From the IMG/VR virus record IMGVR_UViG_3300005239_003333: a DNA stretch of 20,525 nucleotides; one strand, written 5' to 3'. Position 1 is the stretch's first letter. Every line of letters starts with the position of its first letter. The notes beneath the pieces were generated by a model that had not been told where the DNA came from, ran no database searches, and worked only from the letters and a program-made list of their open reading frames with translations. The position numbers were made by a program, and so were the translations under genes. This DNA is from an uncultured virus (IMG/VR IMGVR_UViG_3300005239_003333) (taxonomy: Duplodnaviria > Heunggongvirae > Uroviricota > Caudoviricetes). Shown piece after piece: positions 1 through 19,726 of the stretch.

Positions 1-10
1 CCTTCTCTCG

Positions 11-238
11 TTAAGCAGATACGATCGAGTTATTACGCAACGCTCGTGCCATTTCCCTAGGCGCTACCTTCTCCCACACTCCGGAGAACTGATTCTTCAT
101 TACCAGACGCTTTGCCTGATGACCTACGACGGAGAACGCTCCTGTTACGGGATTTCGCTCAAGCATTACGCTGAACAAATTCGGGTTACGAGTCTGTGAC
201 TCAACTTTACGACGGCTATTTACTTTACTTTTCTTCAT
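11..238 (-). CDS. hypothetical basic phage protein (75 aa)
   Basis: ORF; ATG lies 6 nt after the GGAACT-N4-TATAAT motif at 245-260. Confidence 0.8.
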   Translation of the reverse strand: MKKSKVNSRRKVESQTRNPNLFSVMLERNPVTGAFSVVGHQAKRLVMKNQFSGVWEKVAPREMARALRNNSIVSA

Positions 239-244
239 ATTCTA

Positions 245-260
245 ATTATATTGGAGTTCC
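245..260 (-). promoter_or_regulatory. early-type promoter motif GGAACT-CCAA-TATAAT
   Basis: one of 13 copies; ATG 6 nt downstream (238). Confidence 0.8.
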
Positions 261-274
261 TTTTTTAAATTATT

Positions 275-368
275 GCGAGAGATAGACTGTATTTTTTAAT
301 TGTATTTGTGGTTTTTAGTTATGAGCCTATCTCTCGCTGATCATCCGGTGATCGCAACCGGTTGATCT
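275..368 (-). ncRNA. candidate small structured RNA (two hairpins)
   Basis: directly downstream of promoter motif 375-390 with no ATG; hairpin 339-367 and 14-bp stem 275-288/324-337 (G-U pair on minus strand). Confidence 0.5.
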
Positions 369-374
369 ATATAT

Positions 375-390
375 ATTATAGCGTAGTTCC
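375..390 (-). promoter_or_regulatory. early-type promoter motif GGAACT-ACGC-TATAAT
   Basis: exact motif copy; followed by structured non-coding sequence. Confidence 0.75.
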
Positions 391-400
391 TAATGGCTAT

Positions 401-458
401 CGCCTGTGGGCGGCATAATGCTCAGGCGGGGCGCCTTCGGCGCTTTGCTCCTGCGGAG
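401..458. other. GC-rich triple-hairpin element
   Basis: inverted repeats 401-406/423-428, 431-443, 448-458 in an AT-rich context. Confidence 0.45.
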
Positions 459-461
459 GGC

Positions 462-623
462 TTACCAACTTATCCGACCATTGTACTTTGGAAGACTATT
501 ATACTGTCTATCGTACGGGTTAAGCTTTTTAGGCTCGGGGAGAGTGTCTTTGAATGGAGTATAGCCTCCGGTCGCTATCCGACGCATACGATCGGAGATT
601 ATCTGTGCTTTACCTGATTTCAT
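462..623 (-). CDS. hypothetical protein (53 aa, MKSGKAQIISDRMRRIATGG...ISW)
   Basis: manually translated; ATGA start/stop overlap with upstream ORF. Confidence 0.65.
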   Translation of the reverse strand: MKSGKAQIISDRMRRIATGGYTPFKDTLPEPKKLNPYDRQYNSLPKYNGRISW

Positions 624-781
624 AAGTTGTTTAGTTTACGCTGTTTTTTCTCCCATTGAATTTGTACTGCAAGAGGGTTACCTCCGAACTGGGGCATCAT
701 ACGCTTGAACGTTTCCCAAGAGGGTTTCGGTTCCGGCATATTATCCCAATGGGTCTTCTCTTCTTTTCTCGTTAAGGCCAT
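620..781 (-). CDS. hypothetical protein (53 aa, MALTRKEEKTHWDNMPEPKPSWETFKRMMP...NNL)
   Basis: manually translated; fills gap in minus-strand gene train. Confidence 0.65.
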   Translation of the reverse strand: MALTRKEEKTHWDNMPEPKPSWETFKRMMPQFGGNPLAVQIQWEKKQRKLNNL

Positions 782-814
782 TATATTGAATCGTTTATTA
801 TTTCAAAGTTTGTA

Positions 815-940
815 CTAGAGGAGGTTTAACCAAAAGAAAAGCCCCACGAGCATACATATAGAGAACACTGCTATAATCACCTTCTCGTGCGGTTGTAACG
901 GTTGGTTGTTATTACTGCGATTGTTCCTCGACTTCTCCAT
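815..940 (-). CDS. small membrane protein (41 aa, C-terminal hydrophobic helix)
   Basis: MEKSRNNRSNNNQPLQPHEKVIIAVFSICMLVGLFFWLNLL; starts 1 nt after upstream stop. Confidence 0.55.
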   Translation of the reverse strand: MEKSRNNRSNNNQPLQPHEKVIIAVFSICMLVGLFFWLNLL

Positions 941-941
941 G

Positions 942-1031
942 CTATGTTAGAATCAATGTTAATATACAACCTACCCCGATCGTTAGAAAGAGTAGTGCGA
1001 ATGCTAAGTCTGCTAGTTTTTGATTATCCAT
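942..1031 (-). CDS. small membrane peptide (29 aa)
   Basis: MDNQKLADLAFALLFLTIGVGCILTLILT; ATG 6 nt after promoter motif 1038-1053. Confidence 0.65.
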   Translation of the reverse strand: MDNQKLADLAFALLFLTIGVGCILTLILT

Positions 1032-1037
1032 ATTACT

Positions 1038-1053
1038 ATTATATTAATGTTCC
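1038..1053 (-). promoter_or_regulatory. early-type promoter motif variant GGAACA-TTAA-TATAAT
   Basis: 1 mismatch to consensus; ATG 6 nt downstream (1031). Confidence 0.7.
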
Positions 1054-1220
1054 TTAAAAAATTCTGATGACTCTTTCATTAGCTCGTTCCTTGCCTGTCT
1101 GGTAAACTCTATACCTGCCTCATAGAACTCTTCTGCCTGTTCATGAGTTATAGTGAAGCCATCGTTCGAAGAGATAAACTCTTTGTCGTCTGTTATGTCG
1201 ATTATATCAAAAGGATCCAT
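1044..1220 (-). CDS. hypothetical acidic protein (likely start MDPFDIID..., 58 aa)
   Basis: ORF track 1044..1265 uses a GTG inside a hairpin; ATG at 1220 just after the hairpin is more plausible. Confidence 0.65.
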   Translation of the reverse strand: MDPFDIIDITDDKEFISSNDGFTITHEQAEEFYEAGIEFTRQARNELMKESSEFFKEH

Positions 1221-1229
1221 GTTATCATT

Positions 1230-1273
1230 GGCCCGGGGTGCTGATTGCCATCTTAATAAATACACCCCGGGCC
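1230..1273. other. intergenic hairpin, perfect 11-bp GC stem
   Basis: GGCCCGGGGTG (1230-1240) / CACCCCGGGCC (1263-1273), 22-nt loop. Confidence 0.6.
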
Positions 1274-1284
1274 CTTCCGCTAAA

Positions 1285-1941
1285 TTATAATATATCTAAC
1301 CCCTGAGCTTTCATTAGATCAGAAAGAGAGTATCCATTACCGTCTTCGAATACATCGTAACATCTAGTACTCGTACCTACGACCTTCCGGCATGCCTGTC
1401 CTAAAGTCTTATACTTGATACCATCTACAATGTAACCTTCCTCAGTTAGAACACCGTTAGCATTAGAGAGATGAGTGGTAGTATATAATTCTATATCGCC
1501 AGTTATCATATGAAGTTCTCGCTCTAGTTTATGCCATGAATTACTTTTCTTAGCGCGCTTGAACTCTTTATCATTCTTATATTCTACTTCTAACTCTAAG
1601 TTTAAAACATCGCTCTTATATTTCAACTCATCAATGATAGCTGTAATGCCATCGATCAAAGTATCGTCATCATCTAGAATCCATTCACCTGCATACGGTA
1701 GACGGATGTTATGTATCAGAGATTCAACTAGATCTGCTACAGGTTCTTCAAAGTACCAAGCCTTAACAACGACATACCCAAAGGGCATTATCGTTCCGGC
1801 ATCACGCTTTAACTGCCCTTCACGAATGGGTAGCGATTTAACACCCTGGGTGATGCCTACTTTCTTACGATTGTTTACATCTACTTGTCCAAGAGGATCA
1901 AATGCTTGTCCTATATATAATACGTTCTTACTCATTACCAT
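1285..1941 (-). CDS. T5orf172/MUG113-like (GIY-YIG superfamily) protein, possible C-terminal DNA-binding (RAMA/DUF4357-like) domain
   Basis: LYI...KVGIT...R..QL...T.MPF...ESLIH...GEW pattern typical of T5orf172; true start may be 1935. Confidence 0.65.
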   Translation of the reverse strand: MVMSKNVLYIGQAFDPLGQVDVNNRKKVGITQGVKSLPIREGQLKRDAGTIMPFGYVVVKAWYFEEPVADLVESLIHNIRLPYAGEWILDDDDTLIDGITAIIDELKYKSDVLNLELEVEYKNDKEFKRAKKSNSWHKLERELHMITGDIELYTTTHLSNANGVLTEEGYIVDGIKYKTLGQACRKVVGTSTRCYDVFEDGNGYSLSDLMKAQGLDIL

Positions 1942-2399
1942 TTACAAAGGTCGTACGAATAACCTTCCAACTCTTCGTAGTCTGATTCCTTATAAAAACT
2001 ATGAACAGAGTTATTACTCTCTCTATTAGGATCATAGACGTTATCAGGTATACTAGTATCGATATTATTATCGGACATATCCCGAGCAATCTTAGTTTCA
2101 AGATAACCTCGAATGCGGCGATTAACAATAGTATCTAAAATTTCATCAGGAATTATGTTCGTGAAGTCATGCAATTGAACAGCGTAACTTTCCTTATTAC
2201 CATCCAAGCGACTTTCGATTGCTGCTTTGAAATCCTTAACACTCTTAGGATTGCAGAAGCGATAGTACTGAGTAGGATAAACCTCTTCATCTGCGAATAC
2301 ATTGCCTCCCATATAAGTTAGGCCTGCTTTCTCTGCATTACGTATTAACGTTATGCGATCTTTTTGCTTTTCAGCATCTGTTCGTGGTGTAAGTATCAT
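1935..2399 (-). CDS. hypothetical protein (154 aa)
   Basis: long ORF coupled to neighbours by overlaps. Confidence 0.75.
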   Translation of the reverse strand: MILTPRTDAEKQKDRITLIRNAEKAGLTYMGGNVFADEEVYPTQYYRFCNPKSVKDFKAAIESRLDGNKESYAVQLHDFTNIIPDEILDTIVNRRIRGYLETKIARDMSDNNIDTSIPDNVYDPNRESNNSVHSFYKESDYEELEGYSYDLCKW

Positions 2400-2620
2400 G
2401 ATTCTAGTTCTATTCCGTTATTAAGGTAAAGTTCAATTTGTTCTCTAGCATTAGTCGATATCGATAAACTCTTATCATCTCTCTTAGACAATGAATGCGC
2501 TAGCTCATAGCCTGCGGCACCTTCCGGAAGAGTTTCACCGTCACCGGTCTGACGATTTAGCATCATAAACCGATCACTCGAGAACATTAGAAACGTGGGT
2601 TGTGTTAATTTACTGTACAT
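2396..2620 (-). CDS. hypothetical protein (74 aa)
   Basis: ATG 6 nt after promoter motif; ATGA overlap with next gene. Confidence 0.8.
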   Translation of the reverse strand: MYSKLTQPTFLMFSSDRFMMLNRQTGDGETLPEGAAGYELAHSLSKRDDKSLSISTNAREQIELYLNNGIELES

Positions 2621-2626
2621 ACTATT

Positions 2627-2642
2627 ATTATATTATAGTTCC
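2627..2642 (-). promoter_or_regulatory. early-type promoter motif GGAACT-ATAA-TATAAT
   Basis: exact motif; overlaps the end of the upstream gene (..EEL*); ATG 6 nt downstream. Confidence 0.8.
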
Positions 2643-2890
2643 TCATCATGGTCATAATGCTTTAGAATCTCTCGTTCGTATAAGCTATTAAGGAACCGTC
2701 TTATATCTTTTGGTTGGTAATGAATATTATTAAAGAAAAAGTCTAGAAACTCATCCTGCAATTCCGGAAACTTTGCTTTGAACTTCGCAGGAAGCTTCTT
2801 AATGAACTTATCGAACATGCGGTCGTTCGCGTTACAACGCGATACAATCTCTTCTCTTATATCGAGAATGCTTTCTTCAGTCAGAGCCAT
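2633..2890 (-). CDS. hypothetical protein (85 aa)
   Basis: ORF in minus-strand train, ends in promoter motif. Confidence 0.75.
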   Translation of the reverse strand: MALTEESILDIREEIVSRCNANDRMFDKFIKKLPAKFKAKFPELQDEFLDFFFNNIHYQPKDIRRFLNSLYEREILKHYDHDEEL

Positions 2891-3089
2891 CTTTTAAACT
2901 CTCCTTTATAGTCTCTTGAAATTCATTCCATCCGAACCGTTCGCTATATGATACAACGAACCACAACCAACCTCGATGATGGTAAACGACACCTAGGTCT
3001 TCATGTTCACCTTCGTATTCAATCTCAACTCGTTCCCAAAACTTGGGTTCGAACTCAGTAACGTCTATGCAGTATTTTCCTATTCTCAT
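2877..3089 (-). CDS. hypothetical protein (70 aa)
   Basis: ORF in minus-strand train. Confidence 0.7.
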   Translation of the reverse strand: MRIGKYCIDVTEFEPKFWERVEIEYEGEHEDLGVVYHHRGWLWFVVSYSERFGWNEFQETIKESLKDGSD

Positions 3090-3115
3090 AAATTAATCTC
3101 TTAAGCAGTAAGACT

Positions 3116-3472
3116 CTATACACAATCAGGATACTGCTCGTCGCACCAATCATCCGGGTAACCATTCTCAAAGTCTATCGCGAACTTTGCTTCTGCTATC
3201 TTATCAGCTTCATACTGATCATAGATAATTTCTACCGCATACTTACCTTCTTGTTCTTTTGCATTAGGATAAACCTTTGCAAACAATTCAGGGTCGCCCC
3301 ATTGAAGATCTTGGTAATACATCTCCTTTTCGGAAGTATCATTTTCGTAAATAAATCTACGGATTGCTTTAACATCATGAGTAGTTACAAGATTGATCAT
3401 CTTGGTAAGATTTCCAACGTCTTTTAGCTTATAGCTAATTGACTGAGTAAGTTCGGTAATTAGTTTGTTCAT
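3116..3472 (-). CDS. hypothetical protein (118 aa)
   Basis: ATG 6 nt after promoter motif 3479-3494. Confidence 0.8.
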   Translation of the reverse strand: MNKLITELTQSISYKLKDVGNLTKMINLVTTHDVKAIRRFIYENDTSEKEMYYQDLQWGDPELFAKVYPNAKEQEGKYAVEIIYDQYEADKIAEAKFAIDFENGYPDDWCDEQYPDCV

Positions 3473-3478
3473 ACAATT

Positions 3479-3494
3479 ATTATATTAGAGTTCC
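3479..3494 (-). promoter_or_regulatory. early-type promoter motif GGAACT-CTAA-TATAAT
   Basis: exact motif; ATG 6 nt downstream (3472). Confidence 0.8.
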
Positions 3495-3769
3495 TCTTCT
3501 GGAATATCATCATCCGATTCTAAAGCTCTAAGCAGTTGCTTATCAGTAGTATAGAGTGTAAAGTACCTTCCAAAATGATCGTTAAATATCTTGACGAGGT
3601 CGTATAATCTCCAGACATCATCTGATCTGTAAATTTTTAATCTCATCACTATCATAATCTACTGCTTAGCGGTACTTGTAATATTCCCATCAAAGCAAAT
3701 GCATACATCTGGTCCATCTAGATCGATCTCACGTTGAGATTCTTGAAATGCTTTATGTCTAATGCTCAT
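3485..3769 (-). CDS. hypothetical protein(s): in-frame ORFs 3659-3769 (36 aa) and 3485-3655 (56 aa) separated by one TAG
   Basis: manual translation MSIRHKAF...TAKQ* I MIVMRLKIYRSDDVWRLYDL...DIPEEEL*; ATGA overlap at 3766-3769. Confidence 0.55.
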
Positions 3770-4122
3770 GATAATCCATATACAAGTTCTACCTCAACCT
3801 CATTACAAGGCTGGTCTAATTCTCTCCAACCATACGACTCGCAGAGGAACTGCTTACCTTTCACTTCGACTACATCACCGACCGAGAGCGAATAGTTACC
3901 AGGTTCTCTAAAGTCTTTAGCTAATGCCTGCTCCCAGTTAGAGAGGATCTCTTCCGGGGCGTTAAAGATATGGAACATCTGCTCTGCTCCTTCTTTACCT
4001 TCTTTGAGTTGAACAGGTCCAACGTTCGACGAAGTCTTAAAAACTTCTGTACGAGGACCAGCGTAGTCAGCTCCGTCTCCGAACTGATCTCTGCTTGATG
4101 TGGGTCGTATTATTCTTATCAT
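3766..4122 (-). CDS. YodL-like domain protein
   Basis: E.MFHIFN ... YSLSVGDVV ... FLCESYGW resembles the YodL SLSvsDVV signature; ATG 6 nt after promoter motif. Confidence 0.6.
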   Translation of the reverse strand: MIRIIRPTSSRDQFGDGADYAGPRTEVFKTSSNVGPVQLKEGKEGAEQMFHIFNAPEEILSNWEQALAKDFREPGNYSLSVGDVVEVKGKQFLCESYGWRELDQPCNEVEVELVYGLS

Positions 4123-4128
4123 ACTACA

Positions 4129-4144
4129 ATTATATTACAGTTCC
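4129..4144 (-). promoter_or_regulatory. early-type promoter motif GGAACT-GTAA-TATAAT
   Basis: exact motif; ATG 6 nt downstream (4122). Confidence 0.8.
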
Positions 4145-4314
4145 CGAAACTCTTTGCCCCATCTTGCTCCTCTAGTCCAAAGGTTGAATATCTCATCATT
4201 TGTATATCGGATCTCTTGAGTAGTCTTGCGTATCTCTTTAATATCGACGGGTTTAGAAGTAGATGCACATCCTGAGAGGAGGGTTAAAGCGCAAAGTAAG
4301 AGGGGGATTTTCAT
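4135..4314 (-). CDS. small lipoprotein (59 aa)
   Basis: MKIPLLLCALTLLSGC-ASTSKPV...: signal peptide with LSGC lipobox; ATG 6 nt after promoter motif; missing from ORF track. Confidence 0.75.
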   Translation of the reverse strand: MKIPLLLCALTLLSGCASTSKPVDIKEIRKTTQEIRYTNDEIFNLWTRGARWGKEFREL

Positions 4315-4320
4315 TCTATT

Positions 4321-4336
4321 ATTATACTATAGTTCC
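4321..4336 (-). promoter_or_regulatory. early-type promoter motif GGAACT-ATAG-TATAAT
   Basis: exact motif 4 nt after the tRNA CCA; ATG 6 nt downstream (4314). Confidence 0.8.
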
Positions 4337-4340
4337 AAAA

Positions 4341-4417
4341 TGGTGGGCCCGGTCGGACTTGAACCGACGACCAAACGATTATGAGTCGTTTGCTCTGACC
4401 AACTGAGCTACAGGCCC
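4341..4417 (-). tRNA. tRNA with CAT anticodon, most likely tRNA-Ile2 (lysidine type)
   Basis: GGGCCTG TAGCTCAGTTGGTCAGAGC A AACGA-CTCATAA-TCGTT ... GGTTCAAGTCC ... CGGGCCC ACCA; body resembles bacterial Ile2 rather than fMet; encoded CCA. Confidence 0.9.
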
Positions 4418-4427
4418 AATAATTCTA

Positions 4428-4943
4428 TTAACAAAATCTAGCAAATTCAAACTCAACCTGCTCTAGAGCGTTCTTCAGCTTAATCTCAAAAACACTCTCA
4501 ACTTTACGAGTTGGTCTCCATTCCTCACCAACGTTATCGATCATCGTTCCGTTCTTTACAGTAAAGACGTGACCTGATACTAGGATCAAATAGATACCTT
4601 TACTAAAGTCCTTAATGAAAGACTTAACAGTCTTCTTACGAGAAATATGCTCACCGTGAAGCTTATATACATTCGTAACCTTCTCGGGTGGAAGTACCTC
4701 GAGGTTAAACTCTACCCCATCGATCTCTTGAGTCTTGCCTTCAAGAGAAATTTTCCGACCAGTCGATTCCATATGCTTACAGCCTTTTTTATCTTCACGT
4801 TTGAAAGTCTCTTTCAAGTAGCTATGAGCAGCGTCATAGTCAACATCAAGTGCAGTTGTAAATGCACGTACCGAGCAATCATTCTTCTCAGAACTCTGCT
4901 TATCAGTAGATTTAATAATATCTTTAGCGTTTATGTATTCCAT
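4428..4943 (-). CDS. phage protein with DCxVRA motif, possible Cys-His-Asp peptidase-like fold
   Basis: NDCSVRAF...SGHVFTVKNGTMID pattern recurrent in phage proteins; function inferred only. Confidence 0.6.
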   Translation of the reverse strand: MEYINAKDIIKSTDKQSSEKNDCSVRAFTTALDVDYDAAHSYLKETFKREDKKGCKHMESTGRKISLEGKTQEIDGVEFNLEVLPPEKVTNVYKLHGEHISRKKTVKSFIKDFSKGIYLILVSGHVFTVKNGTMIDNVGEEWRPTRKVESVFEIKLKNALEQVEFEFARFC

Positions 4944-4978
4944 TTTAGTTTTAACAGGTTAATAATTTGTACTCTTTT

Positions 4979-4994
4979 ATTATATCATAGTTCC
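4979..4994 (-). promoter_or_regulatory. early-type promoter motif GGAACT-ATGA-TATAAT
   Basis: exact motif; ~30-nt A-rich leader without SD before ATG 4943. Confidence 0.75.
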
Positions 4995-4999
4995 GGAAA

Positions 5000-5191
5000 C
5001 TAGAAAGAGTGTTGAAGTTGCATGGCTTCGAGAATTGAGTCAATTTGATCACTAGCACGCTTAGTAGTACGGCAGTTATATCGACGAGCGGACCAATCAA
5101 AAGCTTCTACTTCTGAAAGAGTAGTTTCAGATTTAGTAGCCCAGTTAGTAAGAACAAACGTTCCGAAGTTATAATCTAATTCATATTCCAT
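5000..5191 (-). CDS. hypothetical protein (63 aa)
   Basis: ATG 6 nt after promoter motif 5198-5213. Confidence 0.8.
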   Translation of the reverse strand: MEYELDYNFGTFVLTNWATKSETTLSEVEAFDWSARRYNCRTTKRASDQIDSILEAMQLQHSF

Positions 5192-5197
5192 ACAACT

Positions 5198-5213
5198 ATT
5201 ATATTATAGTTCC
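5198..5213 (-). promoter_or_regulatory. early-type promoter motif GGAACT-ATAA-TATAAT
   Basis: exact motif; ATG 6 nt downstream (5191). Confidence 0.8.
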
Positions 5214-5496
5214 TCATCCGGAATGTCTTTGTCAAAAGGATGCTTATCGTCCTCATAAACTTCATACTTTGAATCATCCAAGCTAACAGCGTTTGATATG
5301 CTATTTCAAAATGCTTAGTTAAGTCTGGACCAAATGTACCTGTCCAATTTTTAAAAGGAGTGTGTGGAAGCTTTTCTCTATTTCGGAAATAACGTATAAA
5401 CTCGGGATGGTCTAAGGTTGATTGAAGGTTAAATATCATTCCCTTCTTCTCAGTCTCCATTATAACGAGATCCTTATCAATATCCGGTATATCCAT
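5204..5496 (-). CDS. hypothetical protein, probable 1-nt indel near 5292-5294 (true C-terminus ...NAVSLDDSKYEVYEDDKHPFDKDIPDEEL)
   Basis: adding one A to CAAACG joins the frames and gives a stop inside the promoter motif, as in neighbouring genes. Confidence 0.6.
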
Positions 5497-5545
5497 TGTT
5501 TAGTAACGTAAATGAATGTGTAACTATATTAAGAATTGCTTTACT

Positions 5546-6106
5546 TTACATATAATCTGAGATATCATTTACAGCCTCGACATGCCTTTGCTGAGCTATT
5601 TGAATTGCTTTTGCTTCAGCTGAATTACTTTCATATCTTTTCTCAGGCGGCGGACAACAAACATCTTCATAGTTTAAAGTACAAGATGAGAGCGACGTTG
5701 AATTATATTCGGGGCGGTTTAGATCTACAGAACCAATTCCATGATTACGTTCAACGTTTACAGCATAAGCAGTATTATTTCCATTGTTAATATCATTGAT
5801 TAGATATCGCTTACCTGGCCCTAGCCCCATTACTAAATGATCCCAAAATATACCAGCGTCAGTTAATAGCTCTTCGGTAACCTTCCTCATAGATTCTTTA
5901 CGACCTGTGGTTAAGATAATTCGATATCCATGTGTCTCCCATTCCCATAGCTTATCTAGAGTACCTGGTAATACCTCTAAAGCGTTATGACCTTTAGGAA
6001 GATCTTTAAAACCTTCCGTACCATCAGGGAACTTTACTAGAGTACCATCAATGTCGCAGAAAATTGTTTTTGTTGCGTTTTTAGCGTTGTTGTTTAGATC
6101 TTTCAT
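5546..6106 (-). CDS. HAD-superfamily phosphatase (capless, phage-type)
   Basis: motif I FCDIDGT, motif II ILTTGR, downstream LVMG...YLIND. Confidence 0.8.
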   Translation of the reverse strand: MKDLNNNAKNATKTIFCDIDGTLVKFPDGTEGFKDLPKGHNALEVLPGTLDKLWEWETHGYRIILTTGRKESMRKVTEELLTDAGIFWDHLVMGLGPGKRYLINDINNGNNTAYAVNVERNHGIGSVDLNRPEYNSTSLSSCTLNYEDVCCPPPEKRYESNSAEAKAIQIAQQRHVEAVNDISDYM

Positions 6107-6113
6107 ACCCCTT

Positions 6114-6129
6114 ATTATAAGACAGTTCC
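6114..6129 (-). promoter_or_regulatory. early-type promoter motif GGAACT-GTCT-TATAAT
   Basis: exact motif; ATG 7 nt downstream (6106). Confidence 0.8.
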
Positions 6130-6338
6130 TAACTGGTCGTCTTTGCGAACCCCATCAACATCAATACTAAAAGCAACCCGCCACCGATATACAATAATAT
6201 TGATTGCCAAAAGTCTTTATTTTTCCAGAAGGTCATTGAACCATAACCAGGGGAGCATACGACAGGTTTACTTTTATTCTGCTTATCGACCATTGTAATA
6301 TGCTCGCCTTTGACTCCGTTATATACTTTTTTTCTCAT
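6129..6338 (-). CDS. small membrane protein (C-terminal TM helix); likely start MRKKVYNG
   Basis: ILLYIGGGLLLVLMLMGF hydrophobic stretch; ATGA overlap with an upstream ORF fragment ending at 6335. Confidence 0.65.
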   Translation of the reverse strand: MRKKVYNGVKGEHITMVDKQNKSKPVVCSPGYGSMTFWKNKDFWQSILLYIGGGLLLVLMLMGFAKTTS

Positions 6339-6469
6339 AAATCCTCCAAATCTTTTACCCATTCATTTACCTCAGTAACTACAATACTAACTAACGCGCA
6401 GATATGTATAAGGTAACACTTGTAAAATTTGACATTACAATATTCATTANNNNNNNNNNNNNNNNNNNN

Positions 6470-9727: not shown

Positions 9728-9747
9728 NNNNNNNNNNNNNNNNNNNN

Positions 9748-12002: not shown

Positions 12003-12079
12003 TGGTACTCCGAGCAGGACTCGAACCTGCGACCCACGGTTTAGAAAACCGTTGCTCTATCCAACTGAGCTATCGGAGC
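12003..12079 (-). tRNA. tRNA-Arg(TCT)
   Basis: GCTCCGA TAGCTCAGTTGGATAGAGC A ACGGT-TTTCTAA-ACCGT ... GGTTCGAGTCC ... TCGGAGT ACCA. Confidence 0.93.
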
Positions 12080-12087
12080 ATCTGGAT

Positions 12088-12103
12088 ATTATAATATGGT
12101 TCC
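12088..12103 (-). promoter_or_regulatory. early-type promoter motif variant GGAACC-ATAT-TATAAT
   Basis: 8 nt upstream of the tRNA-Arg 5' end. Confidence 0.7.
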
Positions 12104-13088: not shown

Positions 13089-13108
13089 NNNNNNNNNNNN
13101 NNNNNNNN

Positions 13109-17250: not shown

Positions 17251-17593
17251 NNNNNNNNNNNNNNNNNNNNNNNNNNNNNNNNNNNNNNNNNNNNNNNNNN
17301 NNNNNNNNNNNNNNNNNNNNNNNNNNNNNNNNNNNNNNNNNNNNNNNNNNNNNNNNNNNNNNNNNNNNNNNNNNNNNNNNNNNNNNNNNNNNNNNNNNNN
17401 NNNNNNNNNNNNNNNNNNNNNNNNNNNNNNNNNNNNNNNNNNNNNNNNNNNNNNNNNNNNNNNNNNNNNNNNNNNNNNNNTAAAACACGAAGTAGACGCC
17501 ATATGCTACATTAAACGGTGCGACCGCGATAGTTGTATAATTAACGCGAATATAATTTTCTTTTAGATTTTCTTTCATTTTTGTATGTTTAGT

Positions 17594-19692: not shown

Positions 19693-19726
19693 TTTTATAC
19701 ATTGTTATTATTAAACTCTTATATAT

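Follow-up and report, generated by a model that had tools for sequence, protein, structure and literature searches.

A candidate early non-coding RNA gene with two covarying hairpins and a conserved 35-nt loop in uncultured marine phages

The analysed window, a stretch of 20,525 nt from an uncultured virus (IMG/VR IMGVR_UViG_3300005239_003333, Caudoviricetes), revealed a module of two adjacent hairpins that is very probably a functional structured RNA on the minus strand and that, with only slightly less assurance, is equipped with a promoter of its own. We propose, with a probability of about 0.5, that in a group of uncultured marine phages this module serves as a self-contained early gene for a non-coding RNA acting in trans via its large loop. 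The proposal builds on the anatomy of the module, its conservation and covariation, its strand, its linkage to a promoter and its behaviour as a cassette, all of which were established. The minus strand is the coding strand for the genes within positions 1-6400, and the gap of 223 nt between ORF 462..623 and gene 11..238 contains the whole module, with the following features in the order of transcription:

390-375, minus strand: promoter P1, an exact copy of the promoter motif (GGAAC 390-386, 5 nt, TATAAT 380-375)
368, minus strand: predicted transcription start, an A, the 7th base past TATAAT
339..367, minus strand: hairpin 1 of the minimum-energy fold (arms 367-357/349-339, loop 356-350 UGCGAUC)
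275..337, minus strand: stem-loop 2 (5' arm 337-324, 35-nt loop 323-289, 3' arm 288-275)
261..274, minus strand: AAUAAUUUAAAAAA, a spacer or tail rich in A/U that separates stem-loop 2 from P2
245..260, minus strand: promoter P2 of the leaderless gene 11..238, an exact copy of the motif, with the ATG (238-236) 6 nt past TATAAT
11..238, minus strand: neighbouring gene for a basic protein of 75 aa, highly conserved, with no family match
1..10, minus strand: start of the hairpin/terminator region behind the 75-aa gene, cut by the window end and equal to the sequence in loci L198 and L206

Hairpin 1 is built of 5 bp, an A.A mismatch and another 5 bp, and six bases separate it from P1. The single base A338 links it to stem-loop 2, the stem of which has 14 pairs including G326.U286. 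The initial annotation, made without database searches, had described the promoter, hairpin 1, the 14-bp stem and the loop, and all of them were recovered at the same positions on the minus strand, as was the G-U pair (G326.U286) into which the only mismatch of the stem was said to turn on the transcribed strand. Folding of 368-262 (minus strand) with RNAfold resulted in exactly this structure with -35.1 kcal/mol (z = -8.6), as good as none of 200 shuffles, whereas the plus strand folded more weakly in comparison with its own shuffles (z = -5.4), the G.U pair turning into C.A there. The distance to the next promoter, given as 15 nt before, had to be corrected to 14 nt (274-261). Immediately upstream of P1 lies a G+C-rich non-coding stretch (391-461, minus strand) with a hairpin GCGCC-GAA-GGCGC, which recurs nearly letter for letter in locus L206, while L197 and L198 have coding sequence in its place. 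Elsewhere in the window, at 1230-1273 (minus strand), a perfect G+C-rich stem of 11 bp (GGCCCGGGGTG / CACCCCGGGCC) with a 22-nt loop was found between the stop of ORF 1285..1941 and an ATG at 1219, preceded by a TATAAT-like box without GGAAC. Several long ORFs of the window are broken by runs of N, namely 20 each at 6450-6469, 9728-9747 and 13089-13108, and 230 at 17251-17480.

Both promoters belong to a motif, GGAAC-N5-TATAAT, which occurs 13 times in exact form in the window and only on its minus strand; when up to two mismatches were allowed, 27 sites were detected vs. 11.2 expected, a number that 0 of 100 shuffles reached. An ATG follows exactly 6 nt past TATAAT in eight of the 13 copies and 7 nt past it in one more, so that these genes seem to be leaderless. 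The other four copies comprise two with A-rich leaders of 34-35 nt, one before a tRNA-Arg gene, and P1 itself. With regard to the leadered genes (4944-4978 and 19693-19726, minus strand), their leaders are G-poor and show no Shine-Dalgarno-like box near the ATG. The copy at 12103-12088 sits 8 nt ahead of tRNA-Arg(TCT) (12003-12103, minus strand), which indicates that promoters of this type serve a non-coding RNA of the genome as well. A tRNA-Met(CAT) gene (4341-4417, minus strand) ends 4 nt short of another promoter copy, and based on the placement of both genes, tRNAs appear to be built into the same promoter-cassette array. Among the relatives described below, 231 distinct leaderless promoters, which were collected on the leaderless-ATG spacing, led to the consensus A-GGAAC-W-S-T-G-A-TATAAT-A-N-T-A-G-T-ATG. 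Judged by its sequence, the promoter is of the extended -10 type (TGnTATAAT) plus an extra upstream box. By analogy with the spacing of the leaderless ATGs, transcription from P1 is predicted to start at A368, one base ahead of hairpin 1.

In the search for a close cultured phage, comparison of positions 1-1300 via blastn and of three window proteins via tblastn with 50,697 phage records resulted in no match. The relatives found in IMG/VR are fragments, estimated to be 9-14% complete at 19-29 kb, so that their genomes probably have a size of about 200 kb. A hairpin scan of the relatives' loci revealed that the large stem-loop recurs with different stem sequences, and a covariance model of stem-loop 2 (R1) was built from four copies. 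This model scored the window's stem-loop 2 with 85.3 bits as its single match in the window and detected matches in four IMG/VR contigs and in 37 of 55 marine metagenome loci, which had been collected through the 75-aa neighbour protein; in these loci all matches were on the gene-sense strand. In a complete phage of 221 kb carrying this promoter motif, R1 had no match, which marks the module as accessory. Viral contigs searched with a strict pattern of the element returned only an already known contig, and a fixed-length DNA pattern likewise matched one contig there, already known. The fixed-length pattern also matched one of 185,579 species-representative genomes, in a coding region of a Gammaproteobacteria MAG; this match is rejected by R1 and was dismissed as chance.

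A search of the whole window against Rfam 15 brought only two tRNAs above threshold. For region 200-480, with E values up to 10 admitted, it resulted in only two chance-level matches (CRISPR-DR12 with 20.1 bits vs. 37 and Acido-Lenti-1 with 10.5 vs. 37), and the same database applied to the loci of six relatives revealed tRNAs only, plus one tmRNA match at a tRNA-like gene elsewhere. No tRNA or tmRNA was found at 275-368 with ARAGORN and Rfam. The comparison with Rfam that the initial annotation had proposed thus yielded no family of release 15 for the module, either in the window or in the six relatives; as far as sequence and predicted fold go, the module matches no described RNA family, and we consider it a candidate new family for Rfam. 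In regard to tRNA-like genes of the relatives, locus L203 carries one at 2306-2373 (plus strand), whose D region is short and whose acceptor stem includes G3.U70; it scored 61.4 bits as tmRNA (threshold 47) in the whole-locus scan and 32.1 bits as tRNA when the region alone was scanned, and was not called by ARAGORN. In L204, 4 nt separate the end of its counterpart from P1.

The large stem-loop forms in the folds of all 31 aligned homologues, 28 of which share the two-hairpin minimum-energy shape of the window. For stem-loop 2, 39 matches were aligned by fitting to the model, a procedure that leans towards the structure; the resulting 26 distinct rows, including two weak ones with E values of 0.063 and 0.69, revealed 97.9% of cells paired vs. 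75.5% in shuffles and 36-55% in slid registers, double-sided changes in 10 of 15 pairs, and a covariation score of 0.577 vs. 0.177, which none of 500 shuffles attained. Hairpin 1 is present in 29 of the 31 aligned homologues; in a MAFFT alignment, 94.4% of its cells were paired, seven of ten pairs displayed changes on both sides, and the covariation score was 0.405 vs. 0.177 (0 of 500 shuffles). An ungapped, loop-anchored listing gave the same picture. Covariation in homologues had been named in the initial annotation as a check on the structure, and across the homologues aligned here it supports both helices. In the 29 sequences possessing hairpin 1, inspection by eye showed the UGCGA of its loop to be invariant. 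The A.A mismatch of hairpin 1 is kept as well, and the large loop measures 35 nt in 29 of the 31 sequences. The third pair from the loop in stem-loop 2 is G.U in 24 of 25 rows, and all wobble pairs are in sense orientation, whereas the opposite strand would show C.A. These sense-only G.U pairs, one of them nearly invariant, make an RNA in the orientation of the genes more plausible than a cruciform in the DNA. A small protein-coding ORF starting with the ATG of ATGAT in the foot of hairpin 1 was also considered and rejected: the ATG becomes ACG in many relatives, by-eye reading showed the change to be accompanied by a change of the pairing partner, and the reading frame in the window has 5 codons.

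In the window, the large loop (323-289) consists of 22 A, 7 C, 6 U and no G. The initial annotation had emphasized this G-free composition, which is correct for the window's own loop but not conserved, as two of the 12 distinct 35-nt loop variants are G-free and the other ten carry 1-3 G; the length of the G-free run is ordinary, too, the longest such runs on the minus strand of the window measuring 39, 38, 38, 38, 35, 35 and 35 nt. What is conserved instead is apparent from the loop consensus, C.U.acaa.AgACcacaAau...a.uAa.A..UAC, namely the 5' half (A-G-A-C-C/U-A-C-A-A-A-U) and the last three bases, the remainder being A/U-rich and variable. This conserved 5' half speaks for specific recognition rather than for the generic A-rich binding of an S1-type decoy, as suggested before. 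The distal face of Hfq, the other protein named for a decoy, binds A-R-N triplet repeats. Runs of such triplets reached at most 2-3 in 14 loop variants and never exceeded composition-matched shuffles, and the window's loop has two triplets in a row, which 1990 of 2000 shuffles equalled or surpassed; without A-R-N enrichment, a decoy for Hfq finds no support. As to an antisense guide, the complementarity search of the loop revealed only A/U-rich matches of 9-11 nt in the phage DNA examined, none of them recurring at orthologous places in different lineages. Two further candidates were discarded by eye: a pairing with the loop of the hairpin that follows the 75-aa gene, that loop measuring only 5 nt in the window's lineage, and a tmRNA-like tag frame, as frame 2 of the loop has a stop in 11 of 12 variants, the commonest variant losing it, and there is no start.

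The module is flanked by promoters on both sides, the upstream one at a fixed distance, in 30 of 34 distinct contexts; the promoter of L232 was seen, by eye, to lie 16 nt farther upstream, and that of L242 to be a TAAAAT variant. What lies upstream varies between lineages, with tRNA genes there in L204 and L209. The gene downstream varies as well: the 75-aa gene directly follows the cassette in 24 of 37 cassette-bearing loci, loci of the L220, L227, L209 and L242 types carry other genes after the module, and in L242 the module lies 1.3 kb downstream of the 75-aa gene. Conversely, L210-L212 and L001 have the 75-aa gene without the module. In L210, L211 and L212, the flanking genes are as in L199 and L203, yet exactly this cassette is absent, that is, hairpin 1, stem-loop 2 and one promoter copy, an outcome expected of recombination between promoter repeats. 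A stop codon precedes the module in contig L075, where a canonical terminator (GGGCCTAG...CTAGGCCC with TTTTT after it) is reached 15 nt behind the module, while L175 and L177 carry stem-loop 2 alone, without hairpin 1, after a stop codon. Three IMG/VR contigs with the stem-loop lack the 75-aa gene in 13-34 kb (L075, L012 and L138; also given as L075, L175 and L177). Altogether, the promoter linkage, the varying neighbours, the loss of the cassette and the contexts in L075, L175 and L177 argue against the module being a mere 5' UTR of gene 11..238, the very outcome that would have spoken against the initial annotation. Its suggestion of a promoter-equipped, structured non-coding RNA in a cassette of its own is borne out by the 30 of 34 contexts, the covariation of both helices and the constant loop length.

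Next to the stem-loop, L075 (720-1310), L177 (980-1505) and, in shorter form, L175 display conserved non-coding DNA, at most about 600 bp long, with CCCGCTCT repeats and G+C-rich hairpins. The gene behind this region was found in 19 loci, and a search of the 16 new ones revealed no further significant stem-loop. Sixteen of the 19 contigs with this gene (L178-L196) begin no more than 2.5 kb upstream of it, and four IMG/VR contigs (L002, L075, L138 and L012) begin 10-630 nt upstream of the stem-loop. These recurrent contig starts perhaps reflect a systematic assembly break, maybe a genome end or the boundary of a terminal repeat.

The 75-aa protein is basic and displays 83% mean column identity over 25 homologues; searches in Pfam, PHROG, PDB sequences and the Atlas gave no lead, and its AlphaFold model was poor (mean pLDDT 50.6). 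By eye, a long hairpin was identified behind the 75-aa gene in the folds of 32 of 35 distinct downstream sequences, and bases 1-10 of the window are the start of this downstream hairpin; in L203 a canonical terminator follows as well (3303-3322). This second conserved hairpin (L199-L239 etc.) is found within the first 60-110 nt after the gene, has a stem of 12-21 bp and a partly conserved loop of 5 to about 22 nt (AUUUCGGUGAGAUUAGGUCCA type), and often has a classical terminator behind it. An intrinsic (Rho-independent) terminator consists of a G+C-rich stem with a loop of 3-8 nt and a U-tract directly after it. Stem-loop 2, with its 35-nt loop and the tail AAUAAUUUAAAAAA, which is no U-tract, was therefore rejected as a terminator, and a terminator scan of the minus strand (1-1400) detected no terminator-like site after it. 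Canonical terminators do occur in these phages (L075, L203). Given that none follows stem-loop 2, transcripts from P1 probably read through the 75-aa gene, so that a discrete small RNA of about 95 nt, as put forward in the initial annotation, would need trimming.

Several known RNAs were compared with the module. 6S RNA, about 180 nt in length, mimics an open promoter with an internal bubble between two long helices and thereby sequesters the sigma-70 holoenzyme. The module likewise holds a single strand open by a helix, and according to a matrix made from the phages' own promoters, six of 12 loop variants, including that of the window, share one register in which they look promoter-like, with 0-20 of 3000 shuffles doing equally well. 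The remaining six show no such likeness (229-971 of 3000 shuffles), and the promoter-like loops score between -10 and +4, far under the real promoters at 13-37. Moreover, the module is only about 100 nt long and has a terminal loop instead of a rod with a central bubble, and as it has no Rfam 6S match, membership in this family was rejected. We regard the promoter likeness as a lead, not a finding, and it is very doubtful that the loop reproduces as RNA the non-template strand of the phage's own early promoter (about -23 to +2) and is kept open by the 15-bp stem. Should this apply, the module would be a minimal 6S-like decoy that, on accumulating, titrates a GGAAC-reading phage factor or the sigma-70-type holoenzyme and so shuts off early promoters. 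The stable RNAs C and D of phage T4, whose function is unknown, lie among tRNA genes and are processed from tRNA precursors. Set beside them by this description, the module resembles them in having tRNA genes within 0-4 kb, in L204 and L209 directly upstream, and differs from them by a promoter of its own. To 3'-UTR-derived or Hfq-dependent sRNAs it is similar in L075, where it forms part of a 3' UTR closed by a canonical terminator hairpin, but in the window and in most relatives it lacks a terminator, a U-tail and A-R-N repeats.

Four rival explanations were weighed. Its frequent position immediately before the 75-aa gene (24 of 37 module loci), the absence of a terminator in between, with gene and module sharing one behind the gene, and the basic, very conserved nature of the protein would agree with a 5' leader, in which P1 gives rise to a leadered mRNA and P2 to a leaderless one, the leader controlling translation or stability and perhaps being bound by the protein. 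We consider this improbable, as the gene has its own promoter positioned for a leaderless start, other genes stand behind the module in the L220, L227, L209 and L242 types, gene and module are found far apart (1.3 kb, in reverse order, in L242) or the gene without the module (L210-L212, L001), and the stem-loop occurs on contigs (L075, L012, L138) that have no 75-aa gene in 13-34 kb. Even less weight falls on a DNA-level element, i.e., a cruciform, a replication origin or a recombination site, which we hold to be highly improbable. The inverted repeat as such, the neighbouring non-coding region of up to about 600 bp in L075, L175 and L177, near which many contigs end, fit such an element, but its arms covary rather than keep their sequence, G.U occurs on the sense strand only, in one place nearly invariantly, with C.A mismatches on the other strand (though a G.T pair in single-stranded DNA is conceivable), and the orientation is always that of the genes.

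The PeSLs of T4-type phages are described as combining a stem-loop with an early promoter in regions of small variable genes and as being tied to the gain and loss of cassettes (PMC4122927, PMC2839356). The module shares this stem-loop-plus-promoter logic and the link to gene shuffling as outlined there (PMC4122927), and a reading in which the stem-loop serves termination or processing within a shuffling promoter-terminator cassette, without any function of the RNA product, could account for the stem-loop immediately preceding a promoter copy and for cassettes gained or lost between promoter repeats, as in T4-type phages (PMC4122927). PeSLs are portrayed as short G/C stem-loops in many copies per genome and without conserved loops, whereas the module has two hairpins, conserved loops and its own upstream promoter and is single-copy: R1 matched once in the 20.5-kb window vs. 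13 promoter copies, and the other promoters have no such stem-loop, so that membership was rejected. As there is also no U-tract, and as the conservation of loop sequence and length, of the G.U pair and of the second hairpin would be needless for a mere terminator, this reading is very improbable. Closer in plan are the putRNAs of phage HK022, described as about 70 nt long, with two stem-loops just downstream of early promoters, and active without a protein factor (PMC9378689, PMC11658703). An element of this type would act in cis, its nascent stem-loops binding the very RNA polymerase that has made them and rendering it resistant to pausing and termination, so that transcripts from P1 would pass the terminator behind the 75-aa gene and reach later genes. 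The architecture of two stem-loops just past an early promoter is indeed that of the module, which has them 0-1 nt apart at +1 or +2 and, like putL and putR (PMC9378689), does not end in a terminator. Relatives have canonical terminators some 75-330 nt farther downstream, and in L075 one stands 15 nt after the module. Based on placement and plan (PMC9378689, PMC11658703), a put-type element is conceivable, though still unlikely. The put elements, as described there, have no large open loop and act on the RNA polymerase of E. coli, while the module displays a single-stranded 35-nt loop of conserved length and sequence, which is no put feature there. In addition, L175 and L177 retain only stem-loop 2, there is neither sequence likeness to any family nor an Rfam match, and the genes of the array are individually equipped with promoters, by which read-through becomes less needed.

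Returning to a self-contained RNA gene, P1, a promoter of the kind used by the leaderless early genes and one tRNA, would start transcription at about 368, so that hairpin 1 would form from the first bases and stem-loop 2 after one unpaired base. The transcript would probably continue to the terminator behind the 75-aa gene and then, as we infer, be trimmed back to the two stable hairpins like the tRNAs in the same arrays. The resulting product of about 100 nt would act in trans, with the stem of 14-15 bp and its conserved G.U pair keeping the 35-nt loop open and the conserved 5' half of the loop, AGAC-C/U-ACAAAU, serving as putative binding site for a specific partner, which is likelier to be a protein than an RNA. 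For action in trans through the loop, taken by itself, we see about even odds.

To our knowledge, lytic phages have yielded very few small RNAs so far, and even fewer with a known function. The comparative record of the module is unusually clean, comprising a promoter, a start predicted at +1, covarying helices, a fixed loop length, a conserved wobble pair, and gain and loss of the cassette. Its carriers are widespread ocean phages with leaderless early mRNAs throughout, and the module represents a well-defined object for binding studies and in vitro transcription.
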